A stretch of 64,000 nt of DNA from Candidatus Latescibacterota bacterium (GCA_965116885.1 OZ220741.1:4768001-4832000), one strand, 5' to 3'; positions 7,114-33,218 are shown, counted from the stretch's first letter. Notes: generated by a model from the sequence alone, not told the origin. Numbers and translations are program-made.

Positions 7114-7123
7114 AGGAGGAAAA

Positions 7124-16343: not shown

Positions 16344-17792
16344 CTATCGCCCCCGATTTGTCTCCCAAACCGACCTTTCCTGCCACGGCTCAAAATCTGG
16401 ATTCTCTTCGGGAATTTTGGCTTCGATCTCCTCCTGCCATCCCTTCAGAAGCTCGTGCAATCGATCTCGTACATCGGGCAATTCATCTGAGAGGTCATGC
16501 TCCTCACCAATATCCTCTCGCAAATTGTACAACTCCACATGCCCGGATTCAAAAAACTCGATCAGCTTATAATCCCCCGCTCGAACCGAAGATCCAGGCG
16601 TCCCTCCCTGATTGCCATAATGCGGGAAATGCCAGAAAATCGCATCGCGCGCCAGATCGTCCCCCCTCAACAAAGGCACGATACTCACCCCATCGCAATG
16701 CTGCTCGGGAATCAGATCCAGATCCGCCATTTCCAGTATCGTCGGATAATAATCTGTACTCGTCACCGGAACATCGCAAACAGACCCTGCCGGTGTCACA
16801 CCGGGCCATTTGACAATCAGCGGTTCCCGAGTTCCACCTTCATACATCCAGCCCTTGCCCTCGGCGAGCGGTGCATTGCACGTTGGCGAACCTTCACTCG
16901 TCGCCAACCCACCATTATCTGAGGTAAACATAATCGCCGTATTATCGGCAATACCCGCCTCTTCCAGCGCGTCCAAAATGCGCCCCACACTCTCATCCAT
17001 GCTCTCGATCATCGCGGCGTACACCGGATCGGACTGCACCGTCCGCCGCGTAATGCGCCTGTCCTTCTTGTGTTCCCCCGGGAAAAAATCGCCCTCTTCA
17101 AACGGCTCAATTTTATCCAAGCCCATTGCTCGCGCTTTCTCTTCGTACTTCTCGATCTTTTCCCGCTTCGCCTGAATGGGCGTATGCACCGTATAATACC
17201 ACAAATTCAGGAAAAACGGACGATCGTCCCGGTTCTCGATCAAATCTATAACCCGATCCGTCAAATAATCCGTCAAATACGTCCCGTCCGGTACATCCAC
17301 ATCATCCAGCACCGGAATCGTCCACGGGCTAAAATAACCCCCGCGCCCGGGAGACCCATGTTCGCATCCGCCTACATTCACCTCAAACCCGTGTTCATCG
17401 GGATAAAACCCAGGTCCACCCAAATGCCATTTGCCAACATGCCAGGTCGCATATCCCCCGTCTTTCATCGCCTGTGCAACCGTGCGTTCTTCATGGGGCA
17501 AATACCTGAAATAGGGCACATCGATCAATTTGCCGCGATTGGGGTGATTTCTCCCGCTCCAATCGATAAAATTCGTCACCCCAACCCGTGCGGGATATTT
17601 GCCACTCATCACACTCGCGCGCGTTGGCGAACACACCGGACACGACGCGTACGCATCCGTAAACTTCATCCCCTCCGCGCACAACCGATCCAGATTGGGC
17701 GTCTCGTAAAATTCACTTCCGTAACACGTCGTATCTGCCCATCCGTAATCGTCCAACAAAATAAAAATAATATTGGGTTTGCCCATTTCCAT
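16344..17792 (-). CDS. Formylglycine-dependent sulfatase
   Basis: PNIIFILLDD.G, CSPTRAS (CxPxR), GKWHLG, SDNGG, GKG..YEGG.R.P. Confidence 0.95.
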   Translation of the reverse strand: MEMGKPNIIFILLDDYGWADTTCYGSEFYETPNLDRLCAEGMKFTDAYASCPVCSPTRASVMSGKYPARVGVTNFIDWSGRNHPNRGKLIDVPYFRYLPHEERTVAQAMKDGGYATWHVGKWHLGGPGFYPDEHGFEVNVGGCEHGSPGRGGYFSPWTIPVLDDVDVPDGTYLTDYLTDRVIDLIENRDDRPFFLNLWYYTVHTPIQAKREKIEKYEEKARAMGLDKIEPFEEGDFFPGEHKKDRRITRRTVQSDPVYAAMIESMDESVGRILDALEEAGIADNTAIMFTSDNGGLATSEGSPTCNAPLAEGKGWMYEGGTREPLIVKWPGVTPAGSVCDVPVTSTDYYPTILEMADLDLIPEQHCDGVSIVPLLRGDDLARDAIFWHFPHYGNQGGTPGSSVRAGDYKLIEFFESGHVELYNLREDIGEEHDLSDELPDVRDRLHELLKGWQEEIEAKIPEENPDFEPWQERSVWETNRGR

Positions 17793-18784
17793 TATATCTC
17801 CACATCCACACTCTTGCCAGAAGCGCCCGACTCGCGTGCAGCGTGCAACACCTGCATCACCCGCAAACCGTGTTCAGCAGTAATAATCAGTTCTTCACCC
17901 TCGCGCAAATGCCGCGCAATATTCGCGTGCAGATTTTCGCGCGGTACCGCATCGGTACGCACTTCCTCAGAACCTTCGCCGTAAACCGTCACCTCGCCAC
18001 CGCCTCCACGTTCACACACAAGCGTGGCTTCCGTGCCCAGAACAACCCACTTATACGGCAAAGAATAAAAGGAAATATCCGCCTTGGCAGCACGCGCACG
18101 CACCCCATTGTCAAACACCATCACAATATCGAACAAATCGTCTGAATCGCCCCACTTCGTATGCCGCACATCGGCAAAGACCGACACCACCTTGTGACCC
18201 GACATCAAATCGATAATCTGCTCGACCCAGTGCGGCCCAAAATCCAGCAACGTTCCACCACCCGCCGCGGCTGTCACGCGCCATTGCTGATTGTAATCCG
18301 GCACGCCAAAACCCACTGCGGGACGCGCCCCCATCGTGCGATTCTCAAGCGCAACAATCTCGCCAACTGCGCCATCCAAAACCGCGTGCTTCACCAGACA
18401 ATAATCGCGATCGTAATGCCGGTTGTGGTGCATCGTCAACACCACGCCATTATCTTTAGCCGCCTGCACCATCTCCTCGGCCTCTGGACCGGTCAGTGAC
18501 ATCGGCTTTTCAATCAGCATGTGCTTCTTCGCCGCCGCCACCTTGAGCGCATCTGCATAATGCGCTGCCGAATGCGTCGCGATTAAAACCAGTTCGATAT
18601 CCCAACCGAGAAAATCATCGAGATCACCGGTCGCACGCAGACCCTCGGCAACCGCCTCTTCCCGCCTGGATTCCGTAATATCGCACACCCCCACCACATC
18701 GTACAACCCCGTCTCGCGCATCGTTCTCAAATGACCGCCAGCCACCCGCCCAAATCCAATAATACCCGCCTTGATCTTTTCCAT
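17792..18784 (-). CDS. Gfo/Idh/MocA family oxidoreductase
   Basis: GIIGFG, EKP, HNR, GGGTLLDFGPH. Confidence 0.9.
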   Translation of the reverse strand: MEKIKAGIIGFGRVAGGHLRTMRETGLYDVVGVCDITESRREEAVAEGLRATGDLDDFLGWDIELVLIATHSAAHYADALKVAAAKKHMLIEKPMSLTGPEAEEMVQAAKDNGVVLTMHHNRHYDRDYCLVKHAVLDGAVGEIVALENRTMGARPAVGFGVPDYNQQWRVTAAAGGGTLLDFGPHWVEQIIDLMSGHKVVSVFADVRHTKWGDSDDLFDIVMVFDNGVRARAAKADISFYSLPYKWVVLGTEATLVCERGGGGEVTVYGEGSEEVRTDAVPRENLHANIARHLREGEELIITAEHGLRVMQVLHAARESGASGKSVDVEI

Positions 18785-19510
18785 TTATTCTTCCTCATCA
18801 TCTCCGTATTCTTCACCGCGATAAGCCGCGCGCAACTCGGCGATATTGGTCGCCTTCTTAACGCGCGCCTGAAGCGCCTCTTCCCCTGCGATCAGTTCCT
18901 TCACATTCGCCAGTACCTCCGCCATCCGATCTGCGGGAAACTTAACCGCGCCATTTTCATCCATGTGAATAATCTCGCCAGGCGCGACATCCATGCCGCA
19001 AATCGACACCGGAATATTCACCGCCTGCACAGCCTGATCGCCATGCCCCGGCGATATACCCGTCAACAAATACTGAAACCCCATCGGACGGATTTCATCG
19101 ATATCTCTCGACGGCCCATTAGACACACAGCCCACGCACCCCAGTGCTTTCATCGTCGTCGTCATATTGCCGCCCGCAAGCCCTACCTTACCAGCAATCT
19201 CTGGCGGAAACTTCTGCTCCAGCGCCAGTACCGTCGGCTTTGGCGACGCATCCAGCGCCTCGGCCACATCCATAAACGACAACCGGCTAAATCCCGCATC
19301 TGGCAACGCAAAAGTACACGTCACAGCATACCCACACCGCGCACCGAGTTCTGGATACATACACTTAATCGTCTGATCCGTGTACCAATTTTCAAGCCAC
19401 GGATTATAAAGCCCCAAACACAACGGATTATTCGGATACGTCGCCACCACATTTGTAATAGACGGCGTATCGAAATTCTCCAGCTCCTTCAAAATCTCCT
19501 GCTCTGTCAT
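18785..19510 (-). CDS. RraA/HMG aldolase family protein
   Basis: DTPSITN, GYAVT, GCVSNGPSRD, PGEIIHMDENG. Confidence 0.85.
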   Translation of the reverse strand: MTEQEILKELENFDTPSITNVVATYPNNPLCLGLYNPWLENWYTDQTIKCMYPELGARCGYAVTCTFALPDAGFSRLSFMDVAEALDASPKPTVLALEQKFPPEIAGKVGLAGGNMTTTMKALGCVGCVSNGPSRDIDEIRPMGFQYLLTGISPGHGDQAVQAVNIPVSICGMDVAPGEIIHMDENGAVKFPADRMAEVLANVKELIAGEEALQARVKKATNIAELRAAYRGEEYGDDEEE

Positions 19511-19550
19511 GGTAATCTCCTTAAAAGGCGGTCAGCCCGCCCAGTTCATC

Positions 19551-19576
19551 GGGCGACCACAGGGGGTCGCCCCTAC
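19551..19576 (-). repeat. GTAG-family REP-like palindrome
   Basis: Minus strand GTAG-GGGCGACC-CCCTGT-GGTCGCCC; similar copy at 31404-31430. Confidence 0.7.
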
Positions 19577-19598
19577 TGACCAATTCACTTCACACTTC

Positions 19599-20567
19599 TC
19601 ACTTCTTCCCCACCTTCACCACATGTCCCTGATCCCAATCCTGAATCAGCGGCTCCAGATCATCCCAAAACGCCTCGGGAATTTCAATACTACCAGCTTC
19701 GGCATTTTGAATCGTCTCCGCTTTGTTTCGCCCCCCGCAAATCGCCGTTGCAATCAACGGATGCCGTGTACACCACTGCAGCGATGCCGCCACCAGTGGA
19801 ATGCCATAATCGTCGCAAAGCGCTTTTACCTTCCCAACACGGTCTAAAACCGCCTGACTAAAATTGCGATTCACATAAGAATGCCCGGGCAAGGGTCCCG
19901 TCGCCAGCAAACCGCGCTCCAGAGGTGTAGCAAGCGCAATCCCCACATTGTGTTTTTCAGCACCGGGAAAAATGAAGGTATCCGCCGTGCGGTTCAACAA
20001 ACTCCACGCATCGGGAACCACCGAAGCATCAAACTCGCCCGTATCAATATAGGGACCATTGGAATCGGGATCATTCGCCGCAATGCCAACAAAACGCACC
20101 ACACCCTCATCCTGCAATTTGCGCAACGCCCCAAGCGCGCCATCTTTTGCCATCACCTGCTGCATCGGAAAATCCATCGGGTCGTGAATATACAACACGT
20201 CAAACGCATCCAACCCCAACCGCTCCTGGCTGTCTTCCACCTGCTGCATCACCCCGTCGAGAGAGAAATCGTATTCATTTCCCGATCTCCCCACTTTTGT
20301 CGTCACCGTACACTTGTCAGCCAGATCGGGGCGTTCGCGCAACGCGCGACCAATAATTTTCTCGCTCACAGTATTCCCGTAAAGCGGCGCTGTATCGACC
20401 AGCGTACACCCGGCCTCAATAGCAGCCACCACATTCTCTACACCCACATCTTCATCAACTCCCGGCAAAAAATGACCATCTGGCCCCATCACACGAGCGA
20501 GAAACGCCGTGCCAAAACTGACGATTGGAACCTCCAACCCCGTTCTGCCCAATATCTTACTCTGCAT
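19599..20567 (-). CDS. Aldo/keto reductase
   Basis: LGRTGLEV, DTAPLYG..SE, TKVG, LYIHDP. Confidence 0.92.
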   Translation of the reverse strand: MQSKILGRTGLEVPIVSFGTAFLARVMGPDGHFLPGVDEDVGVENVVAAIEAGCTLVDTAPLYGNTVSEKIIGRALRERPDLADKCTVTTKVGRSGNEYDFSLDGVMQQVEDSQERLGLDAFDVLYIHDPMDFPMQQVMAKDGALGALRKLQDEGVVRFVGIAANDPDSNGPYIDTGEFDASVVPDAWSLLNRTADTFIFPGAEKHNVGIALATPLERGLLATGPLPGHSYVNRNFSQAVLDRVGKVKALCDDYGIPLVAASLQWCTRHPLIATAICGGRNKAETIQNAEAGSIEIPEAFWDDLEPLIQDWDQGHVVKVGKK

Positions 20568-20665
20568 CGCAAATCTCCTCCTAAAAAAACCCCTCGCATA
20601 ATAGACGACAGAACCCCGCGTGTCAATGCGAAAAAATCCCCTGCTCTATGTCATGGTTATGAGTA

Positions 20666-20990
20666 ATGTTACACAGCTTTAAACAAATTTGCGTTGCTTG
20701 TCGAAAGTGTTGGTGATAATTCCACCTTTTTCTCTTTGTTCTGCCTTCGGCGACCTACTTTTTGTCACCAGCAACAAAAAGTAGGCAAAAAATGCCGCTC
20801 TCAAACGCCGAGGGGCTGGCACAGCGCAAACTGCTCAGGTAGATAGACGCCATGTGATGACCTTCAAAGTGGAATGCAAACAATAAGGATGGTGGTTAAC
20901 GGAATAGCGCGCTGTGCAGAATGGTTTTGATTGATGGCGTTTTATGAGGGTGCATTTTTGTAATGGCTTATTTAAAGTACTGTGTAACAT
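20666..20990. mobile_element. Putative MITE-like non-coding element
   Basis: Terminal inverted repeats ATGTTACACAG (20666-20676) / CTGTGTAACAT (20980-20990) with imperfect extension (CTTTAAA); internal 12-bp perfect hairpin 20754-20765/20774-20785; no ORF. Confidence 0.55.
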
Positions 20991-21178
20991 CAGGAAAATA
21001 ATATTGACAGGCTATTAGCAATCTGTTGTATTTGCAAGTATTATGACAAATGAGATACGTGTCGCTGATCTCAATTTATCCTCTGACTACGCAGACGGGG
21101 CTTAACGGCGCGTGCGGGTACGATTGTTTGGACATGATAGGTTCCCTATATGCTCAATATTTTCAGGTTGGTTGAATA

Positions 21179-22171
21179 ATGGGTATAAGCGTAAAAGATC
21201 GCAAGATTCTATGGACGAGAGCGGGAAATCAATGCGCGTTCCCGGGATGTAGGCAGGAGCTTGTCGAGAAGACCCAAGATGTCGGTCCTGACATCGTTGT
21301 CGGTGAGGAAGCACATATAGTGTCGCGAAGCCGTAAAGGTCCACGGGGTTGCGAACCGATTCCCCAAGAAGGAATGGATTCATACACCAACATCATTCTT
21401 TTATGTCCCACGCATCACAATATTGTCGATAGTGCGCCCGACATTTATACCAAGCAATATATGATCGACATTAAATCTGCACACGAACACAGAGTAAGAT
21501 TCAATCAGCCTTTGGATGGATACTTGCTTGAAGTGGCTGCTACGGTACCCAATGCAATCGGAAAAGCTGTTAATTGCTGGCAGATCGGTGGCTCAATCGT
21601 AGTTATCTACTCGTATGGATCTTCGCCTATCCGGCTGGATAACGATCACTGGCGTGCTGCTGGTGTCAGAATTGGTCAATTGCATGCCACAGAAGATGTC
21701 CACTGGCTATTCGATAGTTCCGAAGCAGAGCCTGATATCGAGTACTGGCCTTCGGACTCCAAGTTTTATGTTGTTCAAGAGACATTTTTATACGACGAAA
21801 ATCGTTTTGCACCCTTCGTAAAGCATGAATTTGATCTCGCTAAGGTGCCTGCTTTATCACAAGTGGAGTTGTTGCTGGATGCAGACCCCTCCCTTGTTGT
21901 AAAAATTCCGGATATCGTCAAAGAGATAGGGGCAATTGATCGCGGCGACCATAGTGACCGTCTTGACGTTCTTCTTTTTCAGATGTGGAGAGCGGGCCTC
22001 AGTGACCCCATCCGGGTCTGCGAAGAGTTTCAACGATTTAAAGGAGCGTGGTGGTACAGCGGTGCAAATTCGGAAGGGGTCACTTCGAGGTCAAAGGAGT
22101 TAGCTCTTGTTCAAAGGGCACGAGCCTCTCTAAATAGTGCCGACTATCCGCGGGCGCGTCATCAATCTTGA
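21179..22171 (+). CDS. HNH endonuclease (Zn-finger HNH) fused to an unrecognised C-terminal domain
   Basis: LWTRAGNQCAFPGC...GEEAHI...GPRG...NIILLCPTHH.IVD. Confidence 0.8.
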   Translation: MGISVKDRKILWTRAGNQCAFPGCRQELVEKTQDVGPDIVVGEEAHIVSRSRKGPRGCEPIPQEGMDSYTNIILLCPTHHNIVDSAPDIYTKQYMIDIKSAHEHRVRFNQPLDGYLLEVAATVPNAIGKAVNCWQIGGSIVVIYSYGSSPIRLDNDHWRAAGVRIGQLHATEDVHWLFDSSEAEPDIEYWPSDSKFYVVQETFLYDENRFAPFVKHEFDLAKVPALSQVELLLDADPSLVVKIPDIVKEIGAIDRGDHSDRLDVLLFQMWRAGLSDPIRVCEEFQRFKGAWWYSGANSEGVTSRSKELALVQRARASLNSADYPRARHQS

Positions 22172-22283
22172 TCTTTTGGAAGTAACACACCTCCTTCAAT
22201 GTACCTGAATCAGACTATGATGGAAACAACTACCCGCCCATTTTTCGCCCTCTACATCATGACATGCGGAAGGAAAATTCACT

Positions 22284-24011
22284 GTGAATATTGATTCCAT
22301 ACACTTCAAGGGACATAGTTGTTTCAAAAAAGAGTGGGCTGGCTTCGACACAATCAAGCCCATCAACGTCATTATAGGACGTAATAACTCTGGAAAATCG
22401 CACCTCTTGGATTTAGTGGAAGCATTATGCGACGGCACCATCAACGGCCAAGGTTGGCAATATCGGTGCAGTAGCGTATTAGACGAGGAGTCATTAAGAA
22501 GTAAGTTTCCCGAAAACACGAGCGGAGGCGCACTGGGAGGAAATCACTGGCAGGCACACGGACAACATTTTGTCGATAAGCCGATAACCTGGAAGGTTGA
22601 TACAAGTGGAAGCATAGTCTTTTCCGATGATTTCAAATTAGACTCTCCTCGGGGTGAAAACTCAACCAATGTCCGGCGCTCATTAATTAGCCAAATCCTG
22701 CAAAACGTAACTCACCAATTTAACGGGCATTCATTCCGCAGACTTCTCGCAGATAGAGACATAAAAACCGAGCCGCAAGATGTTAATCTAACACTTGGAC
22801 CGGATGGAAATGGTGCTTCCAACATAATTCGGCGTTTCATCCTGACCACCAACGTGGAATTTCCGAGAGAAATTATACAGCGAGAACTTCGGGGTGCCCT
22901 GAATTCCATTTTTGGAAATGATGGTCAGTTTTCAGAAATACAGGTACAACATCATGACGATGGAACATCAGGTGGGCTACAAGATCATTGGGAGGTCTAT
23001 CTCGGTGAAGATAAAAAGGGTCTAATTCCCTTAAGCAAATCGGGAAGCGGACTGAAAACCATTCTTCTGGTGCTGCTGAACTTATTGGTCATACCCAAGG
23101 CCAAGATATCGGAGAACAGAAACAAATCTGGATTTGTATTCGCTTTCGAAGAACTTGAAAATAATCTCCATCCAGCACTCCTGCGGCGGCTTTTTCAGTA
23201 TATTGAAAAATACGCCATCACTGAAAAGGTATATATTTTTTTGACAACTCATTCGAGCACGGCATTGGATTTCTTTGGTGTCTCGAAAAATGCTCAAATA
23301 ATCCATGTTTTACATGATGGAGAATCGGCACGTACGATACCAGTTTCCGCACACTTCGATCACCTCGGAGTGGTATCCGAATTAGGTGCGAAACCATCGG
23401 ATTTACTCCAGGCAAATGGCATAGTTTGGGTGGAAGGGCCATCTGATCGCATTTATCTCAATCGCTGGGTTGGCCTCTATTCGGAAGGTCGTTTTCAGGA
23501 GGGTCGGGATTATCAGTGTGCTTTCTACGGTGGATCGCTTTTGGCACGGATACAATTCAAATCTCCCGAGGAAGCCGAAACCGATCTTGTTAATCTACTC
23601 AGCGTTAATCCAAATATCATCGTTGTGTGTGATGGGGATCGAACTGCCAAAGATTCTGATATAAAGGGAAGGGTGAAGAGGATTAACACGGAGGTACAAA
23701 AAATACCTGATGCTCATATTTGGATAACCGATGCGAAGGAAATTGAAAATTATATTCCAAGCTCTGTCCTCGAGAAGGCATTAGACCTTTCAGGACTTCG
23801 TGATCCTGAACAGTATGAGAACTTTTTTCCTCGTAAAAAAGCCTGTTCCGAGTCATATATCGAAGCCAATCTGAATCGGCGCAATGTCCATAAGGAAGAT
23901 TTAGCCAGATCAAGCGTTCCGCACATGACGAACGACATAATGGCGAATCGCTTTGATTGGAAAGAACAGATGAAAGAAATTGTTACCCGTATAGAATCCT
24001 GGAATACTTGA
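22284..24011 (+). CDS. OLD-family ATP-dependent endonuclease (ABC ATPase + TOPRIM)
   Basis: Walker A GRNNSGKS, signature-like SGSG, Walker B FAFEELENNLHP, H-loop TTHS, TOPRIM WVEGPSD and DGD, EIENY. Confidence 0.9.
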   Translation: MNIDSIHFKGHSCFKKEWAGFDTIKPINVIIGRNNSGKSHLLDLVEALCDGTINGQGWQYRCSSVLDEESLRSKFPENTSGGALGGNHWQAHGQHFVDKPITWKVDTSGSIVFSDDFKLDSPRGENSTNVRRSLISQILQNVTHQFNGHSFRRLLADRDIKTEPQDVNLTLGPDGNGASNIIRRFILTTNVEFPREIIQRELRGALNSIFGNDGQFSEIQVQHHDDGTSGGLQDHWEVYLGEDKKGLIPLSKSGSGLKTILLVLLNLLVIPKAKISENRNKSGFVFAFEELENNLHPALLRRLFQYIEKYAITEKVYIFLTTHSSTALDFFGVSKNAQIIHVLHDGESARTIPVSAHFDHLGVVSELGAKPSDLLQANGIVWVEGPSDRIYLNRWVGLYSEGRFQEGRDYQCAFYGGSLLARIQFKSPEEAETDLVNLLSVNPNIIVVCDGDRTAKDSDIKGRVKRINTEVQKIPDAHIWITDAKEIENYIPSSVLEKALDLSGLRDPEQYENFFPRKKACSESYIEANLNRRNVHKEDLARSSVPHMTNDIMANRFDWKEQMKEIVTRIESWNT

Positions 24012-24073
24012 AGGGCATGAACCTTGTCAATGCCACATGTGTTAGATTGTGAACCTGAAATGGAGATCTCATT

Positions 24074-24535
24074 GTAAGTCAAAAATTTAATTTTGAGAAT
24101 CTCGTTGAGTTGTGTCGGCGAACCCACGATCAAACGCAACGCTCAGCAACGCAAGCTATTGATCGCGCACTTGTCGCACGTAATTGGCTATTCGGCTGGT
24201 ATATCGTCGAGTATGAGCAGAACGGCGCAGACAGGGCAGAATACGGATCGCAGACCCTGAAAAGGCTTTCAGCAGCCCTGAAAACCAAGATTGGCTGTGG
24301 GTTCTCTGTGGATGCCCTGGAACGGATGCGCCGGTTCTACCTGCTTTACAAACACATCATTCCCGATGCTCTCGAGGCGGAAAAATTCGCAACAGTGTCG
24401 CGGATTTCCGACAGTGGAAAGATTTCCGCGACAGCGTCGCGGATTTTGCCCAAACAGTCTCTGAAGCGCGAAGATATCGCAGTTGTCATTCTACCGGAAA
24501 CCAGACAACGATTTTCCTTCGGATAGTCCCACACA
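24074..24535 (+). pseudogene. Truncated DUF1016 (YhcG-like) N-terminal fragment
   Basis: RNWLFGWYIVEYEQNGADRAEYG...GFS...L.RMR.FYL.Y; conserved xWSH read as TAG-S-H; no C-terminal PD-(D/E)xK part; no canonical start after the GGAGA RBS. Confidence 0.75.
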
Positions 24536-24749
24536 GTTAGCCATATCAGTGTATTAGCATGTCAGAAGTCGTTGAGAAGTAAGTTTCTCGAAAACATAAG
24601 AGACGGTGTCGGTAGGAAACCACTGATTTGACCGCGAACAACATTTTGTCGATATTTCTATAACCTGGGAGGTTGCAGCAAATGGGGACATATCTACCGA
24701 GGTATTCCCCGACAATCTCAAAATGTACGGATGTAGAGGGGGAGCCGAC

Positions 24750-25829
24750 ATGGCACAGCCACAACATCGCAGCAAAGACAACTTGCAACAGAGCGAATAC
24801 TGGATGCGTACCGTCTCGTTTGCAGGACTCCATCGCATTTTGAAAGCCGTTGCAGACTTTCCGACCGGACTCAAGGCTAGTGAGATTAACAACCTGGTGC
24901 TGAAAAATAAAATCTCACTTACTCGGCGTAATTCTCCCCCTTCACCTACTACCCTTTACCACTATCGGAATACCTTGTTACACCTACGCGCACTCAAACG
25001 AGATGGACGGATGTTGCGTATCAACTACGATGACCCTGACGTCTGCAAACTACTACATCAACCAGCCCCAGCCAACGGAGATCAATCGCTATGTGATGCT
25101 GCGAAAGACCCATTTGCAGCACTGGTTTTGAAAAACGAACAATGCAGATCGCTTTTCTTCGATCTTTTCATGCCTTTGGATATAAGTTCTGGTACCGTCT
25201 CCAACTTCCGGCAAAAGGGTGTCCCCGTTAAGTGGACCCGCCACCATTCCTCTCACGCTGGAGAGGTCGTTTTTGAAAATAATACGACAGGCTACACGGC
25301 ACGTTGTGTATCACCTGTAAGCGTGACTGCAATTCTATATGGCTTACGCTACTGGGCGCGTGATGAATTAGGACTCATTGACGAATACTGCCAACAAGCT
25401 GGTGGTGATACGATCATGTTTCCCTTATCCCACCCAGAGCCTTTCTCAACAGAAATTGATTCTCCTGTACTGCGGACAGTGCACTTACTACTTTCTCTAC
25501 GTACCTCACGAGAATGGACTCTTTTTTCCATTTCCGATCTCATCGCTCGTTGCTGTGTAGAACAAAGGCAACCGATTAGTGTGCTCTTCCGTGCCATTGA
25601 TTGGATACTCAAAAAATGGCCTAATCATATTTTGCTGATCCCAACATCTCGTGCCCTCGCTACGCTGACAGCGACATCGCCACAACGGGAGAATCTGGAG
25701 TTGCGAAGATATTACAGGACTTCAAATGGCCCCTATATCTCCCATATCCGCATACATCAAGAAATAACGATCAAATCCCAAGAGGTGACAAACAAACATG
25801 TCCAATATTCTGGAAAAACTCCGGCTTGA
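24750..25829 (+). CDS. Hypothetical protein, probably multi-winged-helix DNA-binding (BrxA/SspB-like, tentative)
   Basis: GGGGGAG RBS; wHTH-like segments (KASEINNL...TTLYHYRNTLLHL; ILYGLRYWARDELGLID; FSISDL...LFRAI); overlaps next gene. Confidence 0.55.
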   Translation: MAQPQHRSKDNLQQSEYWMRTVSFAGLHRILKAVADFPTGLKASEINNLVLKNKISLTRRNSPPSPTTLYHYRNTLLHLRALKRDGRMLRINYDDPDVCKLLHQPAPANGDQSLCDAAKDPFAALVLKNEQCRSLFFDLFMPLDISSGTVSNFRQKGVPVKWTRHHSSHAGEVVFENNTTGYTARCVSPVSVTAILYGLRYWARDELGLIDEYCQQAGGDTIMFPLSHPEPFSTEIDSPVLRTVHLLLSLRTSREWTLFSISDLIARCCVEQRQPISVLFRAIDWILKKWPNHILLIPTSRALATLTATSPQRENLELRRYYRTSNGPYISHIRIHQEITIKSQEVTNKHVQYSGKTPA

Positions 25830-26988
25830 CTTTAATCCCTTTGAGCCAGCGGCAACAGGTGCGCCCCTCCATGCCAAATTGTCGCCCCCAAAAGACTTGG
25901 AATCTCGAATGAAAAAACTTCTCGACTTACATCAAAAAGGAACTGGTGTCAAGGCCATAGTCATCGTTGGAGAGTACGGGACAGGAAAGACCTGTCTCTT
26001 GCAATGGCTCCATAACGAGGTTTTTCCAAGCCGTCAAATCAAATCGTTTTACTTCGACAATCCAGGGGTGCAATTCTACGACCTTGCCAATATGTTGTTA
26101 CGTACTATCGGACGTAAGGACTTTGCAAAATTTATCTGGGAGCTTGCCGGTTCGCATGTGCCTGGTTCGCATCAAACAAGCCTTTTTGAAAAAGGTTATG
26201 AGGCGTATTTGTCCAGTTCGTTCCGCCCAGGCCGACAACAGGATATGACAAGTCCCCTCCAAGAAGCGATTATAAATGCGGATGTCACGACCGACGAACA
26301 GATCGCGCACTGTCTCGCCCGGATCGTTACCGAAATTGTAAAAAAACCATATTTTGAATATCGGGACTTCATACCGAGGCAGAGTGGCAGCATGGTTCCA
26401 GAAGGAGAAGAAGCACGATACTTTCGTGCAATATTGAAAACGATCTCACAGGGAATGGGTGCCAAGGCCATAGCATTTCTGATCGACGAATTTGAGGAAA
26501 TAGGTCTTCAAAAAAGGCTCACCAGACGTGCTGCACATGATTACTTAGCGACGCTGAAACGTTTGATAAACCTCGCTCAAAGCGAACAAGTTGACTTCTG
26601 GATTGTCATGTCAATGACTCCCGAGGCCTTCGATACCACTATTAACCTCGATCCTGCGCTCGGTGAGCGTTTCTCTGGGCCATCCGAGCAAGAGCAGGTA
26701 CTTCGTATCGAACCGTTGGGTCCCAACGACGCTCTTAATTTGATGCAATCACGTATAAATGCTGCTCGTGCTAAAGAAATGGGCGAATCAACGGAAGATC
26801 TTTTTCCATTTCCAGATGATATTGTCTTCCGTCCCAACACGTACTCTAATCCCAGACGGCTCGTAAAGACCTGTTTTCGAGCAATTGCACAGGCAGATGC
26901 AGACCCACCATTTACTGAAGAATATCTTCACAAAATTGAAGATGAACTTTATCCCGACCCAACTACCAGCGAGAATGTGCAACCATGA
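25798..26988 (+). CDS. P-loop (AAA+-type) ATPase
   Basis: N-terminal NPF, Walker A GEYGTGKT, Walker B FLIDEFEE, SNPR motif. Confidence 0.88.
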   Translation: MSNILEKLRLDFNPFEPAATGAPLHAKLSPPKDLESRMKKLLDLHQKGTGVKAIVIVGEYGTGKTCLLQWLHNEVFPSRQIKSFYFDNPGVQFYDLANMLLRTIGRKDFAKFIWELAGSHVPGSHQTSLFEKGYEAYLSSSFRPGRQQDMTSPLQEAIINADVTTDEQIAHCLARIVTEIVKKPYFEYRDFIPRQSGSMVPEGEEARYFRAILKTISQGMGAKAIAFLIDEFEEIGLQKRLTRRAAHDYLATLKRLINLAQSEQVDFWIVMSMTPEAFDTTINLDPALGERFSGPSEQEQVLRIEPLGPNDALNLMQSRINAARAKEMGESTEDLFPFPDDIVFRPNTYSNPRRLVKTCFRAIAQADADPPFTEEYLHKIEDELYPDPTTSENVQP

Positions 26989-27740
26989 AAGAGGAGCAAA
27001 CCTTCCAGACAGTAGTGTTTCTGGACACAATGACACTACACCATATTCGGCTTTGCTTGGAGTCCGCCAAGAAGGATGATCTTCAATTTCCTACTGACGA
27101 GCAAACGGTATCCATATTGAAAACCCATTTTGGCAGCGTTTCCGAAGGACCTCTAAAGGAATCACTTCTAAAAGGCTTGGAGACTATCGTTTTACTATCA
27201 ACAAATGATGTACAGATCGAATATGCGCCCGTCTCAGAAATTGAGATACTCACTGGAATTACAGAGGGAGAAGCACGTATAAAAGTGGCCCAAGAGGGCA
27301 TTCCTCATCGAATGTGGTCAAAGTTTCCGGAAAGAGAGATTCGAGATCGGATAATCGCCGAGGACTTAGCTGCTATCAAGGATCGTATTGACGATCTTGA
27401 CTCATTGTTAGAGGAGTCTGGCGTTACGGTTACGCGAAGTGACAACAAACGAACAAGTGATGTAATTGAATTGGCGAAAGGCATAGTTGGTCTCATCTAC
27501 ATGGGCGAAATAGATAGTATCATTTACGCAAGCGCAGTGGCTGCCGGAGCGGACTTTTTGATCACATCTGATAGCTACCTCAGAGAAACTGTGAATAATA
27601 TTCGCGATTCAAAGGATCAACGATACGAGGAAATTCGACGAAAGTTGAATGAGCTTATCGGCGATTTCGACCTTCCCAAAGCTTTCACAGTTACGGATTC
27701 AGGTAGACTTAGAGGAATATCATCTTCATCTTTCCCTTGA
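26985..27740 (+). CDS. PIN-domain nuclease-like protein
   Basis: Acidic PIN pattern: VFLDT, SEIE, DSIIYASA...ADFLITSD; ATGA overlap with the ATPase stop. Confidence 0.7.
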   Translation: MKEEQTFQTVVFLDTMTLHHIRLCLESAKKDDLQFPTDEQTVSILKTHFGSVSEGPLKESLLKGLETIVLLSTNDVQIEYAPVSEIEILTGITEGEARIKVAQEGIPHRMWSKFPEREIRDRIIAEDLAAIKDRIDDLDSLLEESGVTVTRSDNKRTSDVIELAKGIVGLIYMGEIDSIIYASAVAAGADFLITSDSYLRETVNNIRDSKDQRYEEIRRKLNELIGDFDLPKAFTVTDSGRLRGISSSSFP

Positions 27741-27754
27741 GATAGATTCTGGTT

Positions 27755-28966
27755 ATGAAATATCAAACCACCGAGCAGGCAGAGTGGAGATATTGGGTGA
27801 CCCCAAAAGATGCCAAAGAGAAGGCAGTCCACCGTTGGTATCTATTTCCCCATAGCTTCACCGATAATCTCGTACACGCGCTGATTGATGAATGGGGCCT
27901 TAACGGCCAAGATAGGATCCTTGATCCCTTCGTGGGGACAGGTACAACGCTATTGGCCGCCAAGGAAATGGGCGTTCCTGGCAATGGCTATGACCTTTCC
28001 CCTCTCGCCGTTCTTGCATCTAATACCAAGACCGCTACTTTCTCCCGAAAGCGGTTGGAAGCAGCATGGCAAACTCTCGAACGCACATTGATATGCAGCA
28101 ATACACCCCTGAACCGCGTCTATCCGGAACTGGTTCAAAAGGCACTCCCAGAGGGCCGGCTTGAAGCTCTTAATGCAGTCGCGACAAGTATTGAGAGTCT
28201 CGAATGTTCGTCCACGGAACGGGATTTCTTCCGATTGGCGTTGCTTTCTATCATACCACGTTTCAGCCATGCGGTCGCAACTGGAGGTTGGCTGAGGTGG
28301 TTGAATCAAGGTGCTAGTGCCGAGAACGTTACGGTTTTTTTTAAAGAACAAGTTGAGATGATGTTGTCGGATATCTGTGACGCAGTCCCCCAAAGAGATG
28401 GATATTGGGAAACCCATGTCGCGGATGCGCGTGTCATGCCTGCAAACGATGCGGAATACTCAGCCGTGATTACTTCACCACCGTACCCAAATCGTCACGA
28501 CTACACGCGAATTTTTGGGGTCGAATTGATGTTTGCCTTTCTTGACTGGGAAGCCAATCGAGCACTTAGATACCAGACGTTTCATTCCCATCCAGAAGCT
28601 CGTCCGGATCGACCAGTAGCTAAAAGGTATAAACCCCCGAAGGCTTTGAACGGCAGTATCCGAGATCTACGAGACAAGCGTATGCAACGCATGCTGGAGG
28701 GATATTTCCTGGACATGTATTTATGTCTTTGCGAAGTTGCTCGTGTTTGTCGCAAAGGTGCTAAAGCAGCGTTCGTCGTAGGGAATGCACAATATGACGG
28801 TAAGGCTATCCTTGTTGATGAGTTCACGGCAGAGGTCGGGGAACAAGCGGGGCTCACCTGTGAGGAAATACGGGTAGTGCGGAGACGTGGAAATAGTGCA
28901 CAACAGATGGGGAAATATGGGCGAGTGGCGTCTCGAGAGAGTGTTGTCATATTTGAGAAGCCCTGA
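27755..28966 (+). CDS. DNA amino-methyltransferase, probably N4-cytosine (motif I before motif IV)
   Basis: VHRWY, LDPFVGTGTT (SAM binding), ITSPPYPN (catalytic SPPY), VVGN. Confidence 0.88.
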   Translation: MKYQTTEQAEWRYWVTPKDAKEKAVHRWYLFPHSFTDNLVHALIDEWGLNGQDRILDPFVGTGTTLLAAKEMGVPGNGYDLSPLAVLASNTKTATFSRKRLEAAWQTLERTLICSNTPLNRVYPELVQKALPEGRLEALNAVATSIESLECSSTERDFFRLALLSIIPRFSHAVATGGWLRWLNQGASAENVTVFFKEQVEMMLSDICDAVPQRDGYWETHVADARVMPANDAEYSAVITSPPYPNRHDYTRIFGVELMFAFLDWEANRALRYQTFHSHPEARPDRPVAKRYKPPKALNGSIRDLRDKRMQRMLEGYFLDMYLCLCEVARVCRKGAKAAFVVGNAQYDGKAILVDEFTAEVGEQAGLTCEEIRVVRRRGNSAQQMGKYGRVASRESVVIFEKP

Positions 28967-29008
28967 TAGTCAAATTAGAGTGACCAGTTGCGCCTCTGGA
29001 GGTAAGAG

Positions 29009-29251
29009 GTGTTCAAAGAACATGAACAAATCGTGCTCACTGCCGATGTAGTCGGCGATGAAGGAGAAGAACTGAAATCGGGTGATGCGGGCACCATCAT
29101 CCACATCCACCCAAATGAAGAAGCTCTTGTAGCGGAGTTCATGTCCCTTGATGGCGACACAGTGGCCATCGCGACAGTGTTACCGTCACAGGCACGCCCC
29201 GTGACTAACGCGGACCTCACACATGCCAGAACGGTTCCGGCTACTGTCTGA
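29009..29251 (+). CDS. DUF4926 family small protein (putative antitoxin-like)
   Basis: KEHEQIVL...LKSGDAGTIIHIH....VAEF...DG.TVAIATV; GGAGG RBS. Confidence 0.75.
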   Translation: MFKEHEQIVLTADVVGDEGEELKSGDAGTIIHIHPNEEALVAEFMSLDGDTVAIATVLPSQARPVTNADLTHARTVPATV

Positions 29252-29333
29252 CCCTTGCATCGATTTCGGGGGCGTAATGGGGCGCAATAGAGGCACTATA
29301 GGGGCGCATTGGAAACGCCTGTGAGACTTCGGT

Positions 29334-29426
29334 TGGCTTATTCTGGCTTATTCTGGCTTATTCTGGCTTATTAGGGTCTCATTGGGGTCTTATTGGGGTC
29401 TTATTGGGGTCTTATTGGGGTCTTAT
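29334..29426. repeat. Compound tandem repeat
   Basis: TTCTGGCTTA x3 (29341-29370), then ATTGGGGTCTT x4 (29381-29424). Confidence 0.95.
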
Positions 29427-29647
29427 CCGTTTCTCCACGGGCCGTACAGTCCCCGGCAAACGATATGTGATCAATGATGGATAGCTTGACTCAGGAGCTA
29501 TGACAAGCTGTGACGAACCATCACAGAATCGCGGAAAAAATGACCCCCCCGACTACTCCGTATAGGAGAGTGCTCGCCTGGAGCACTTGTCATCAGGGGG
29601 GAACCTTTTTATCCATTGGGCAGAATAAAACCTGAAGCAACAAATCT

Positions 29648-30394
29648 CTAAACCGCCATCGCCTCTTCTTTCAAATCATTCAACCCTTCAAACTCGCGCC
29701 AGATATCGGCCATAGCATCCGTGCTATTTTCTCTGGCATTGACGTGTCGGGGTCTGAAAATCACGGCATACCGGATATCGGGTGAATGATTTGGGCCTCC
29801 ATTGTGATACATCTGGTGATGGCAGATCACTGCATCGCCTGCCTCGCCCATAAACTGAATCGGACCATGCGGCAAATCGATATTGGGAATCCGGCGATTG
29901 GCCTTTGCCGTCTCCACATAATTGGGATCCTTTTGAAACGCCGCCTCATAAGCGCGATGAGACCCCGGCCAAAAACAGAAATTGCCCATATATGGTCGCG
30001 GAACATCGTGGACCAGAACCACCACCAGCAGCGTCATACCGCGACTCAGCAACCCATCTTTCAGCTTCCCGCCCAAATCCAGATGCCCTCGCGTCAGCGG
30101 ACGCTCCTCTGCATCGGGAAAATTGAGCTTCACATTACCTCCCTGCGGTGGAATCAACTTCCCCTCTCCCACAACTGACTCGCACAGACCCCAAAGCGGC
30201 GACTTATTAAATAAATCTGCAATCACCGGCTCATTGCTCAACCCCGGATTTCGTCCCTGTTGCATCACACGATAACGCATGTGATAATTAATAGCCCTGC
30301 GTGCCTGATCGGCCATCAACTTTGGCACAGCCCCTCGCACAAGCACATATCCCTCTTCGAAAAACTGCTGCTTTTGAGCTTTGGTCATTTGCAT
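29648..30394 (-). CDS. PhyH family dioxygenase (HxD)
   Basis: FFEEGYV, GHLD, GNF..WPGSH, MYHNGGPN. Confidence 0.88.
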   Translation of the reverse strand: MQMTKAQKQQFFEEGYVLVRGAVPKLMADQARRAINYHMRYRVMQQGRNPGLSNEPVIADLFNKSPLWGLCESVVGEGKLIPPQGGNVKLNFPDAEERPLTRGHLDLGGKLKDGLLSRGMTLLVVVLVHDVPRPYMGNFCFWPGSHRAYEAAFQKDPNYVETAKANRRIPNIDLPHGPIQFMGEAGDAVICHHQMYHNGGPNHSPDIRYAVIFRPRHVNARENSTDAMADIWREFEGLNDLKEEAMAV

Positions 30395-30403
30395 GGCAAC
30401 CTC

Positions 30404-31375
30404 CTATTCATAATCCAGCACAACCTTAATCGCCTCGTCGCGATGATCGATAAACAACTCAAACCCCTTTTGCACCTCTGTAAACGGCAAATGGTGTGTG
30501 ATAATCGGCGAGACATCGATACGTCCCTGTGCGATCATATCCATAGCCAGGGGATAATCATTCAGCGAATCTGGCCCCACAGAGCCGACCAGCGTCACAT
30601 TCTTACTGAAAAAAGCGCGATAATTAAACGCATACACATCGTCATCGGGCACGCCAAACGCCAGCACCGTGCCCAGGCGTTTGGTCAAATTCAGACACAA
30701 ATTGACCGTATCCTGATTGTGCCCCACAATCTCCACCACCAGATCGGCCATGCGTCCATCCGTAATATCTCTCACAACAGCCACCACATCTTCCCTATCG
30801 GGATTCACCACATGGGTCGCCCGCATCTTTTTGGCCGCCTCGACACGAAAATCGACCGTATCCACAGCCACAACGGTCTTCGCCCCCAAATTGCTCAACA
30901 AATGCGTCATCAACAAACCCATTGGCCCCTGCCCCACCACCACGGCGTCCTGATTGAGAATATTGCCCAACTTGCGACACGCCCAAATCACCGTCCCCAA
31001 AGGCTGTGACATCAACAATTCATCAAGCGGTTTATAATCCACGAGATGAACCCCTACTCTTTCACTCGAAATATAATATTCAGCCAACCCACCGATACCC
31101 GCCGTGGGCCGCGCCTGCACAAAATCCCCCGGTTGAAACCGATCCGACGACGACGCAACCACCGTACCAATACACTCGTGAATCGAAGTCCCGATATTCA
31201 TCGGATACACCGCGTCCGGTTGTTTCAATACAAACTTTGGCGAATCCGACCCACAAATCGCGGTCATATGCGCCTTAACCTTTATCGATCCCCCTGGAAA
31301 ATCCTCAATATTCGGCTCATCGGCCTCAAACATCTCAATCTGCCGATGAGCGACAACGTGTGCTGCTTTCACCAA
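30404..31375 (-). CDS. Zinc-binding (MDR) alcohol/sugar dehydrogenase
   Basis: ICGSD, IHE, QPL, VVGQGPMG, AIKVVL. Confidence 0.88.
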   Translation of the reverse strand: MVKAAHVVAHRQIEMFEADEPNIEDFPGGSIKVKAHMTAICGSDSPKFVLKQPDAVYPMNIGTSIHECIGTVVASSSDRFQPGDFVQARPTAGIGGLAEYYISSERVGVHLVDYKPLDELLMSQPLGTVIWACRKLGNILNQDAVVVGQGPMGLLMTHLLSNLGAKTVVAVDTVDFRVEAAKKMRATHVVNPDREDVVAVVRDITDGRMADLVVEIVGHNQDTVNLCLNLTKRLGTVLAFGVPDDDVYAFNYRAFFSKNVTLVGSVGPDSLNDYPLAMDMIAQGRIDVSPIITHHLPFTEVQKGFELFIDHRDEAIKVVLDYE

Positions 31376-31403
31376 TGCCTCCTTTAGAAACTTTTAGATC
31401 AGC

Positions 31404-31430
31404 GGGCGGGCACAGGGGCACCGCCCCTAC
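31404..31430 (-). repeat. GTAG-family REP-like palindrome
   Basis: Minus strand GTAG-GGGCGGTGC-CCCTGT-GCCCGCCC; same loop as 19551-19576. Confidence 0.65.
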
Positions 31431-31457
31431 ATTGATTGCTATCGCCTATCCATCCCC

Positions 31458-33218
31458 TCAATCCGCCGCTTCAATCCGCGGAGCCTCTAACTCACTGCGC
31501 TTTCCCAACCAGATGAACACACCGCCAACGCCCAGTACAAAACCGCCCACAAACAGAATCCCCAGACGTCCAATCAGTGGATTGGGCAAAAAGACGAGCA
31601 TACAAATCACCCCGCCAATAACCGCAGCAAAACTACCGATAATTTTGAGCTGGCGCAAATCATTTGGTATGCCGATCTCTTTCTCAAAATCAACCGGAGT
31701 CAGCATGCGATCAAAAAAGTCCTGCGCTTGCCTCTTATAAACTTCCGGCGTGCGATTCCAGAACGGCATCGTCAACAAATAAACCACTATCCCCACGGCG
31801 AGATTGGTAAACACCTTCTGCTGAAATGACCAGGTCTCGCCAAAAAGCTCCGCGCTAAAAAAACCAATTGCCGATGGAATCAGCGTCACACACACCGTCA
31901 CAATCGCCGCCCAACTCGGCGACGTGCGAATAAACAATCCCATCAAAGCAGGCACAGCCATCGGCAACGCCAACAACGCGCCGATATTCAACATATGCTC
32001 GAACACCCCTCTGCCCTCTGTATTCGCAAAATACGTGGCAATACTCACAATACACACCCCAAACACCGCTGAAAACACCTGCCCCAACCGCATCAGGCTC
32101 TTGCCCTGCATAGTCGCCCGTCCAAATAACCGGCACAGCGTCGGATAAATATCATTCGTAAAAATCGCCGCATTGCGGTTCAACCCCGAATCCATCGAAC
32201 TCATCGTCGCCGCAAACATCGCCACCACCATCAGCCCCGTCATACCCAGCGGCAACACATTCAAACTCGCAATAGCATACGCCGCTTCCGCAGCCTTGGG
32301 AATATCGACCGCCATCACCTCGGCGTGAAACAAAAGCCGCGCAGTCATCGGCGGAATAAACCAGATAAAAGCACCCGCCGTCATCAGCACAAAGCCCAGC
32401 CACGCCGCCTTTTGCGCCTCGCGTCCATCCTTCACCAGAAAATACCGCTGCGCCGACGTAAGCGTATTGTATCCAATCACATTCTTCAGCAGCATCGCGA
32501 TAGCCCACGCATACGTATAAGCCCGCAGCGGAAACTGGTCGGGTGCATTAAACACACCATAAGCCGACGACAGCCCCATATCCTGAATGCCCTGAAACAA
32601 CGCACCCACGCCGCCGAGCTTCACCAGACACAACACCCCCACCAGAATAGTAATGGGAATAAGAATAAGCGTCTGCAAAAAATCCGTAGCCGTCACCGCC
32701 CAGCTCCCCCCAATCAGCGAATAGAGCAACACCACCGCCCCCACCACCACGATCACCTGCTCAATTTTATATCCAAACACCGCCGAACAGAAAATCGCCA
32801 ACCCCAGAAGATGCAGCGACGAATACAGCGTTTGCATCACAAAAGACATCCACGCGTAAAATTGCTGCGTCGAAATGCCAAAGCGCAGACGAATAACCTC
32901 TGGACCCGTAATCGCCCGGATCTGCCGAAACCACTTGGCGAGAAACAAACCGTTGATTGCAAACCCCACTGAATTTGCCAGATAAATCACCAGCACACTC
33001 CAGCCAGCTTCATAAGCCGCACCCGCCGCGCCCGAAAAAGTCCACGCACTAAACGCCGTCATAAACGCACTCGACCCCACCAGCCACCAGGTGCCCTTAC
33101 AGCCGTTTCGAAAATAATCACTCACATTTTCATTAAAACGGCGAAACACCATCCCCACCCCAACCAACACGGCCAAATAACACCCGATCACAACATATTC
33201 AACCGATGTTTCACTCAT
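31458..33218 (-). CDS. Sodium:solute symporter family transporter
   Basis: SDYF, WWLVG.S.F...FSA.TF.G..G.AY, GG..AV..TD..Q, AATMSSMDSGLN; many TM helices. Confidence 0.92.
   Translation of the reverse strand: MSETSVEYVVIGCYLAVLVGVGMVFRRFNENVSDYFRNGCKGTWWLVGSSAFMTAFSAWTFSGAAGAAYEAGWSVLVIYLANSVGFAINGLFLAKWFRQIRAITGPEVIRLRFGISTQQFYAWMSFVMQTLYSSLHLLGLAIFCSAVFGYKIEQVIVVVGAVVLLYSLIGGSWAVTATDFLQTLILIPITILVGVLCLVKLGGVGALFQGIQDMGLSSAYGVFNAPDQFPLRAYTYAWAIAMLLKNVIGYNTLTSAQRYFLVKDGREAQKAAWLGFVLMTAGAFIWFIPPMTARLLFHAEVMAVDIPKAAEAAYAIASLNVLPLGMTGLMVVAMFAATMSSMDSGLNRNAAIFTNDIYPTLCRLFGRATMQGKSLMRLGQVFSAVFGVCIVSIATYFANTEGRGVFEHMLNIGALLALPMAVPALMGLFIRTSPSWAAIVTVCVTLIPSAIGFFSAELFGETWSFQQKVFTNLAVGIVVYLLTMPFWNRTPEVYKRQAQDFFDRMLTPVDFEKEIGIPNDLRQLKIIGSFAAVIGGVICMLVFLPNPLIGRLGILFVGGFVLGVGGVFIWLGKRSELEAPRIEAAD

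Follow-up and report, generated by a model that had tools for sequence, protein, structure and literature searches.

A stretch of 64,000 nucleotides from the genome of a Candidatus Latescibacterota bacterium (GCA_965116885.1 OZ220741.1:4768001-4832000; the whole stretch is called the window here) carries a cassette of four genes, g1 to g4, which encode a predicted winged-helix DNA-binding protein, an AAA+ ATPase, a predicted PIN nuclease and an amino-methyltransferase. The cassette is real, conserved and as yet unnamed, and it is most likely a compact defence system based on methylation. The reading we prefer, with a probability of roughly 0.6, is that of a self-contained, mobile, methylation-based defence cassette of the same kind as BREX, Ssp and MANTIS, in a minimal four-gene form. 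The feature is far beyond chance, as is clear from the homologues of g1 and from the recurrence of the four genes together.

The cassette had been picked out in a first-pass annotation, which placed four co-oriented and coupled genes at 24750-28966; coordinates, overlaps and gap proved to be exactly as it claimed (Table 1). The junction of g1 and g2 is an overlap of 32 bp, g2 and g3 overlap by 4 bp (ATGA), and a gap of 14 bp separates g3 from g4. All the motifs quoted in that annotation (LRYWARDELGLID, NPF, GEYGTGKT, IDEFEE, SNPR and SPPY) are present in the translations. The longest open reading frame (ORF) for g1 starts at 24723 and gives 368 residues, while the ATG at 24750 gives 359. Since most homologues start at a position that matches this ATG, 24750 is the better start, and the alignment sides with the choice made earlier.

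In order to see how far the four genes travel together we scanned one genome per species with g1 and found 57 loci, a gene being scored as present at 80% coverage or more. All four genes stand in the order of the window at 37 of the 57, one of which (L036) has an insertion of 3.6 kb between g1 and g2. The remaining 20 comprise four that run off contig ends, two interrupted by insertions, 13 degraded copies and one (L048) that is minus only the methylase. The record titles of the 57 loci name Latescibacterota, Nitrospira, Binatia, Gammaproteobacteria, Thermodesulfobacteriota, Vicinamibacterales, Spirochaetia, Planctomycetota, Chloroflexota-type bacteria and others, and the conserved gene order in unrelated taxa that the first-pass annotation had proposed to look for is found over many phyla. 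Six distant relatives of g1, used to scan metagenome contigs, gave a second branch of 35 loci that are only about 25% identical in g1. Here the order is g4-g1-g2-g3 at 21 loci and that of the window at one; at each of the other 13 a contig end cuts the locus beside the missing gene.

Over the 37 loci the identity to the window covaries among the four proteins (Spearman rho 0.87-0.95), the PIN protein being the fastest (mean identity 47%) and the methylase the slowest (70%). Hence the four genes have been inherited as one unit over two deep branches that differ in gene order, and the three enzymes keep their catalytic residues in both. Because the set survives both deep divergence and rearrangement, it is a functional unit. 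Clean in-frame fusions of g1 and g2 occur at L029 (739 residues) and L048 (731 residues), and there is also a representative of 712 residues; the existence of these natural fusions suggests that the two proteins work as a complex. A complex prediction of g1 (residues 14-343), g2 and g3 gave a score of 0.00 for the PIN protein as partner, which speaks neither for nor against binding.

The PADLOC model MTase_II (PDLC03224), a type II model derived from REBASE, matches g4 at 2.7e-61 over residues 14-403, that is over its full length, and Pfam N6_N4_Mtase matches at 1.8e-8. The residues of DPFxGxGTT and TSPPY are each at least 95% conserved in 64 sequences; the longer string TSPPYPN, with the same conservation at each residue, is present in the 12 commonest forms listed, which make up 48 of the 64. 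The earlier call of an SPPY methyltransferase is therefore borne out by the full-length match and the conserved TSPPY. In the portion of PMC10406627 that bears on this point, SPPY is motif IV of a characterised N4-cytosine enzyme and DPPY is found in the adenine enzyme CcrM. From the motif, the product of g4 is likely to be N4-methylcytosine, although a motif alone is no proof of the target base. The only poorly conserved segments of the protein, residues 102-125 and 207-223, are proposed to serve target recognition because they lie between motifs I and IV, where such a region is expected.

For g2, the Pfam families AAA_22, BrxC_BrxD and AAA_16 each match 29 of 29 family members, in agreement with the P-loop ATPase first proposed. 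In 50 sequences taken from both branches, conservation reaches at least 95% at the Walker A (G58, G61, G63 and K64) and Walker B (D230 and E231) residues and at R291 and R353. The match to Pfam BrxC_BrxD reaches 29.5 bits against a cut-off of 22.2, with its best stretch confined to the P-loop region (44-75). The NCBIfam BrxD model (NF033438) gives 19.7 bits against an equivalog cut-off of 350, PADLOC BrxD matches at 8.3e-5 over residues 36-74 only, and PADLOC SspC reaches only E 0.026. On these scores g2 is not a BrxD orthologue. Its family matches describe a stand-alone AAA+ ATPase, with the assignment to the ORC clade coming from the Pfam families alone.

The product of g1 had no match in Pfam, PADLOC or NCBIfam scans. 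None of 33 members of its family matched the relevant Pfam families even at E ≤ 5, DUF4007 (PF13182) included. Searches returned 399 homologues at E ≤ 1e-3, and among 1.84 billion representatives the family forms 207 clusters at E ≤ 1e-3 and 185 at 1e-10. As judged by sequence comparison it is a small, discrete and new family; it comprises about 200 clusters when grouped at 50% identity, has no model in Pfam, and so amounts to an annotation gap. An ESM Atlas search gave only unnamed clusters and a DpdG-like lead at 0.88, below the trust level of the tool. A tblastn search of plasmids did not find g1, and viral contigs likewise gave no match to it.

We then turned to structure prediction. An AlphaFold2 model of g1, built from 33 homologues, has a mean predicted local distance difference test (pLDDT) score of 81.7 and a predicted template modelling (pTM) score of 0.78, and contains three winged-helix-like modules. 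Foldseek searches of the PDB with the g1 and g3 models gave nothing at E ≤ 1e-3, and profile searches of PDB sequences with g1, g2 and g3 gave nothing useful; folds were assigned from VIA-align. With this tool the g1 model resembles the DNA-recognition domain of FokI (Z 9.1, 166 residues), SspB (6juf_A; Z 7.9, 154 residues, 18-225 against 18-222), the nickase N.BspD6I (Z 7.2), BrxA (7zge_A; Z 7.1, 153 residues) and the recognition domain of BpuJI (Z 6.5-6.8). The chain 6lb9_A aligns over 213 residues spanning model positions 14-337 with a root-mean-square deviation (rmsd) of 13.5, a value which indicates that the domains are oriented differently. The third module (233-348) resembles the winged helix-turn-helix (wHTH) domains of ESCRT-II, MukE and JetB (Z 6.5-7.2). 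g1 thus has, at moderate Z values, the three-module (w)HTH architecture of about 350 residues. Passages of two comparative papers (PMC12839542 and PMC10853773) treat the modules of FokI, SspB, BpuJI, N.BspD6I and BrxA as one triple-(w)HTH DNA-binding module, which pairs with ORC-type ATPases as a DNA-scanning unit.

The suggestion that g1 is DUF4007/SspB-like holds in part. The multi-wHTH fold is indeed like that of SspB and BrxA, but by sequence g1 is not a member of the family: hhalign of the g1 profile against 14 DUF4007 (SspB family) proteins from the same phylum gave a probability of 0.1. The likeness to BrxA is similarly one of fold alone, as no BrxA sequence model matches g1. A search of the window's own genome with PF13182 found no DUF4007 protein at 1e-10. 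DUF4007 (SspB-type) genes are common in the phylum: 45 of 168 genomes searched have them, as do 12 of the 20 other species in the genus. A conventional type II endonuclease was also considered for g1 and rejected, the model consisting of three wHTH modules with no nuclease domain. g1 is more likely to be a structural DNA-binding partner of the ATPase than a diversifying specificity subunit.

The AlphaFold2 model of g3 (pLDDT 90.6) is of higher confidence. Its top 17 VIA-align hits are all PIN or VapC-type chains (Z 9.3-11.1), aligned over 120-137 residues of targets of 120-155 residues; the best are 8wmm_G (Z 11.1, 134 residues) and 2fe1 (Z 11.0, 130 residues). Foldseek gave probabilities of up to 1.00 with a TM score (target) of 0.59. 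Four acidic residues, D14, E87, D177 and D196, are invariant in 28 sequences of branch A and at least 95% conserved in 48 sequences from both branches, and a helical insert of about 90 residues falls between the second and the third of them. The Pfam PIN model (PF01850) scores 15.7 bits on the protein of the window, below the gathering cut-off of 23.6, and matches 6 of 28 family members at E ≤ 0.1 (best 1.9e-5), so that membership of the PIN family rests on the fold and the active site. g3 is a PIN domain with a conserved D-E-D-D set, consistent with the PIN-like protein initially suggested. PIN domains are mostly RNases; the substrate of g3 may be RNA or DNA.

The distribution of the cassette is that of an accessory element. 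The window's genome has a single copy. Among 20 other species of the genus, two carry a full copy, three carry remnants and 15 have no match, and none of 20 genomes searched outside the genus matches. In congeners L002 and L003 the cassette occupies the same chromosomal site, with flanks (17001-20652 and 29535-33000) about 90-93% identical to those in the window and with homology resuming at 24615. At loci of other lineages the block of homologous DNA is 24.73-28.98 kb, the four genes only. The cassette is accessory and horizontally mobile, and its high identity across phyla points to recent transfer.

Such a patchy, horizontally spread distribution, with a conserved unit of exactly four genes, would also suit a selfish addiction module, in which the methylase and the PIN protein form a post-segregational killing pair that stabilises the island and has little or no anti-phage role. 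The toxin of a VapBC pair is classically a PIN protein, and the 17 best structural matches of g3 are without exception VapC-type or related PIN chains. However, no small VapB-like antitoxin ORF lies beside g3, which overlaps g2 by 4 bp on one side and is 14 bp from g4 on the other. The 13 degraded copies show that loss is tolerated, many of them having deleted g2, g3 and part of g4 together. In addition, g1 and g2 are strictly retained with intact motifs, and a two-part pair would not need them. We regard this explanation as improbable, and note that a restriction-modification system can serve both addiction and defence. In degraded copies (L010, L020, L031, L032, L039 and L041) g1 is often kept while internal deletions take g2, g3 and most of g4; this apparent retention is an ascertainment effect, because the loci were found with g1.

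The neighbours of the cassette were surveyed at 35 loci (117 of 159 candidate flanking ORFs, after dropping ORFs shorter than 110 residues and near-duplicate or degraded loci). A restriction- or defence-type Pfam domain is found among the nearest four ORFs at 17 of the 35, so the defence-gene neighbours looked for at the suggestion of the first-pass annotation do often adjoin it. The domains include HsdM/S/R, DUF499, OLD-type AAA_15/21 with DUF4276, Abi_C, Mrr with ResIII, Eco57I, YhcG and SNF2 with NOV_C. Two arrangements recur. At nine loci in the window's own branch the cassette sits within a type I operon in the order hsdM, (aspartyl-protease-like ORF), hsdS, cassette, with hsdR further on. 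In the second branch it is nested in type III operons as mod-[g4 g1 g2 g3]-res, with both flanks seen at 10 loci and at least one at 16; at L070 the junctions of mod and res with the cassette measure 1 and 9 bp. Between loci, the Hsd, Mod and Res proteins of the flanks share 67-91% identity, and each nesting may therefore go back to one ancestral insertion that then spread as a composite. The protease-like ORF of about 125 residues (Asp_protease_2 / gag-asp_proteas) lies between hsdM and hsdS at seven of the nine type I loci (L004, L005, L006, L007, L022, L029 and L056) and is 84-95% identical among them.

This nesting between modification or specificity genes and the restriction gene, at nine type I and 10 type III loci, recalls prrC, which lies between hsdS and hsdR of EcoprrI. 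By analogy the cassette could be a guard or backup that monitors a host type I or III enzyme and frees the PIN protein as an RNase, the usual activity of this fold, when a phage anti-restriction protein disables that enzyme. Against such a role, the copies in the window and at L002 and L003 have no flanking type I or III genes, and the same is true of at least 20 other complete loci. The cassette also keeps its own methylase, of which a pure guard would have no need, at every complete locus except one, including those beside a type III Mod. Finally, if each nesting is a single ancestral insertion, the association is not a repeated one. We consider a PrrC-like guard unlikely, if somewhat less so than an addiction module.

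Several observations weigh against our preferred reading of a methylation-based defence cassette. We infer its defence, methylation, ATPase and nuclease activities alike. The Z-scores of g1 (7-9) are moderate and fall in a range that, by the calibration of the tool, is common for models without a clear match. Conservation across the family reveals no hypervariable segment in g1, which is thus unlikely to be a diversifying specificity subunit. The L048 locus (6998-9961) consists of a g1-g2 fusion and the PIN gene with no methylase within about 4 kb, and its neighbours are housekeeping genes (GUN4, Der/EngA GTPase and CbiQ). This is a misfit with strict restriction-modification logic, since lethal restriction activity would not be tolerated there. 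Degradation of 13 of the 57 loci implies that the cassette is often lost. L048 and the many degraded copies are a warning that restriction, if there is any, is not strictly lethal. Furthermore, at 18 of the 35 surveyed loci none of the four closest ORFs is recognisable as a defence gene, and some of these loci lie amid metabolic genes, L002 for instance being beside an aldo-keto reductase gene and a PhyH gene. In favour of our reading there is a weak hint of expression. Two RNA libraries of one study (runs labelled sponge metagenome) contain contigs that match parts of g1, g2 and g4 at 99% identity or more, and one RNA library of another study contains contigs 90-95% alike over g3-g4; these contigs may, however, be DNA carry-over.

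The loci without defence neighbours could also suggest a function outside immunity, as an epigenetic regulator or a DNA/RNA maintenance module, for example ATP-dependent site-specific methylation combined with a processing nuclease. The conservation of the proteins, 47-70% mean identity across phyla, is unusually high for defence genes, and among the closest relatives of g4 with a solved structure are tRNA m2G methyltransferases, with weak E-values. However, a maintenance function sits poorly with full copies in only two of 20 other species of the genus, and the high identity across phyla indicates recent transfer. The cassette is moreover repeatedly embedded in restriction operons and defence islands, and the full-length match of g4 is to a model of type II DNA methyltransferases. 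A non-immune role therefore seems very improbable to us, more so than either the guard or the addiction module.

For the methylation-based defence cassette that we favour, we propose the following mechanism. The methylase g4, probably acting on N4 of cytosine, would mark host DNA as self, at a target sequence probably set by its variable loops between motifs I and IV. g1 and g2 would form an ATP-driven complex that binds or scans DNA and that may also serve to load or license the methylase, a role which the ATPase has in MANTIS and BREX. On meeting unmodified foreign DNA the g1-g2 complex would activate the PIN nuclease, which would then act either by restriction, through cleavage of the invading DNA, or by abortive infection, through cleavage of RNA of the cell or the phage. 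A bolder and distinctly more tentative version of this model, which we would not expect to hold in full, is an ATP-gated minimal form of epigenetic immunity. In it one g1-g2 machine both loads an N4-cytosine methylase and switches on the PIN protein on unmodified DNA, and the cassette has been recruited repeatedly into type I and III operons, where it would act as a second line of defence once those restriction enzymes have been evaded or inhibited. In that case it would be the smallest system known in the BREX/Ssp/MANTIS class, and the first there to use a PIN effector.

If our reading is correct, the PIN nuclease joins the effectors tied to epigenetic self-marking, and the nesting in classical restriction operons would allow ideas of layered defence to be tested. 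How the ATPase gates modification versus restriction is still unresolved in MANTIS and BREX, according to the relevant part of a preprint (bioRxiv 10.64898/2026.09.23.753747). With four small proteins (251-403 residues), natural fusions and two gene orders, the cassette would be far simpler to reconstitute and to study structurally than the BREX and MANTIS ATPases of more than 1,000 residues.

The surroundings of the cassette in the window are listed in Table 1. G+C content is 0.43-0.50 across 21-29 kb against about 0.53 in the surrounding window. The ends of the cassette are defined by neither boundary repeats nor an integrase. The promoter-like match in the leader (9/12) is not above shuffles, nor are the counts of promoter- and terminator-like sites above those of shuffled sequence. 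Rfam gave no match in 24400-29700, and no tRNA was found in 20000-31000. The HNH, OLD and DUF1016 genes upstream were considered as parts of the system and rejected, since they lie in an insertion that is absent from congeners bearing the cassette. Together the HNH and OLD genes may constitute a two-gene defence system in their own right, of the OLD-ABC plus HNH type. The 138-residue DUF1016 ORF is probably a truncated gene from which the half encoding the YhcG PD-(D/E)xK nuclease is missing; full-length DUF1016/YhcG genes flank the cassette at L053 and L066. The repeat at 24564-24692 looks like what is left of an older OLD gene, and may mark a point at which recombination exchanges the content of the island. 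An OLD-like fragment also lies upstream of g1 at L001. The hairpin element downstream of the cassette, which lies in the flank conserved with L002 and L003, is also present at L023 and L029 (three copies in L029) at 84-92% identity.

Table 1. The four cassette genes and other features of the window.
Feature	Position	Strand	Description
g1	24750-25829	+	359-aa triple winged-helix DNA-binding protein (predicted)
g2	25798-26988	+	396-aa AAA+ P-loop ATPase, stand-alone, ORC/Cdc6-STAND type (BrxC/BrxD-like)
g3	26985-27740	+	251-aa PIN-domain nuclease (predicted), helical insert of ~90 residues
g4	27755-28966	+	403-aa amino-methyltransferase, motif I (DPFxGxGTT) before motif IV (TSPPY)
Upstream leader	24615-24749	+	Accompanies cassette in congeners; weak promoter-like site at 24628-24656 inside; overlaps OLD-gene remnant
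Extra insertion	20653-24614		3.96 kb, in window, absent from L002 and L003; HNH, OLD-type ATPase and DUF1016_N genes
HNH protein	21179-22171		PADLOC PDC-M68A at 3e-30; also SAVED-HNH effector models
OLD-type ATPase	22284-24011		AAA_15/AAA_21; AriA/GajA models
138-aa ORF	24110-24526		DUF1016 N-terminal domain only (PADLOC PDC-S02)
OLD-gene remnant	24564-24692		~130 bp, 73-88% identical to 22486-22616 in OLD gene (repeat families D2, D4)
80-aa ORF	29009-29251		DUF4926 (6.2e-10); directly downstream of g4; DNA shared with L003, not L002
Two adjacent tandem arrays	29334-29437		10-nt GGCTTATTCT-like (~4 copies) and 11-nt GGGGTCTTATT-like (~5 copies)
Hairpin element, G/C-clamped	29535-29608		~75 bp, one copy in window's genome; no Rfam match

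We finally compared the cassette with known systems. PADLOC 2.0.0 and NCBIfam 20.0 contain no named system for it and no model for g1 or g3, and the PADLOC check proposed at the outset gave no full-system match. Full-text literature searches, which covered articles apart from their supplements, found no description of the four-gene set, in keeping with the initial impression that the combination is not a named system; none was found in print. The cassette is likewise not mentioned in the PIN passages of a BREX survey, in 12 of the 19 places where a Dnd survey deals with PIN, SspB or methylases, or in the passages of a YprA preprint on BrxA-like and PIN proteins. It had also been claimed that the operon has no PD-(D/E)xK enzyme, HsdR/Res helicase, PglZ or PAPS reductase, and the Pfam, PADLOC and NCBIfam scans agree. 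The same scans found no known restriction endonuclease family in g1-g4, although the PIN protein could be the nuclease.

Type II restriction-modification systems resemble the cassette in that g4 matches a type II methyltransferase over its full length and in being compact, mobile gene sets. The cassette differs in having no recognisable endonuclease, in its three extra conserved genes, an ATPase among them, and in the one locus that is minus the methylase. g3 resembles VapC-type PIN toxins and PcrIIC1 in its PIN fold and in having the four acidic residues, but it is about twice their size, carries the insert of about 90 residues, has no adjacent antitoxin and is linked to g1, g2 and g4. The MADS models mad1-mad8 gave local or weak matches only (mad2 on g4 at 3.3e-6, over residues 36-86 only; mad8 on g2 at 0.0028) and none on g1 or g3.

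MANTIS (Gao_RL, MtsABCD) is also a set of four genes with an AAA+ ATPase, a small partner, a methyltransferase and a nuclease effector, and its methylase resembles g4 in that motif I precedes motif IV and the recognition region is central. In the part of the preprint concerned with loading, the AAA+ ATPase MtsA is needed to load the group-alpha methyltransferase MtsC (bioRxiv 10.64898/2026.09.23.753747). However, MtsA is a large DUF499 protein, MtsB a DUF3870 protein and MtsD a helicase-PLD nuclease, none of which is among the Pfam or PADLOC matches of g1-g4, and the MANTIS methylase has DPPY (adenine) where g4 has TSPPY.

BREX shares with the cassette a BrxA-like multi-HTH fold, an ATPase with the BrxC_BrxD signature and a methyltransferase, all in one operon, and the pertinent passages of PMC12839542 describe BrxD as a stand-alone ORC/Cdc6 ATPase similar in size to g2. 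In contrast to BREX, the cassette is without PglZ, a large BrxC/DUF499 protein, BrxB and BrxL, and g4, with motif I before TSPPY, is not of the PglX type. Neither PglZ nor a large BrxC/PglY is present in the four genes, and between the congener flanks the only ORFs besides the cassette are HNH, OLD-type and DUF1016_N. In the three PIN passages of the same survey (PMC12839542), PIN is an occasional auxiliary only.

The likeness to Ssp (SspB-SspC) lies in a protein of about 350 residues with three (w)HTH modules and an ORC/Cdc6-type AAA+ ATPase beside a DNA-modifying enzyme, and the logic of pairing a wHTH module with an ATPase is set out, for the SspB-SspC type, in a section of PMC10853773. The modifier of the cassette is a methyltransferase as opposed to the sulfur chemistry of SspA/SspD, its effector is a PIN protein instead of SspE or SspFGH, g1 is not DUF4007, and g2 (396 residues) matches SspC weakly. 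By their defining features, then, the cassette is not BREX, Ssp, MANTIS, MADS or VapBC. By analogy it most likely works most like BREX, Ssp and MANTIS, which, with Dnd, all couple a scanning ATPase and a DNA-binding partner to a modification enzyme.

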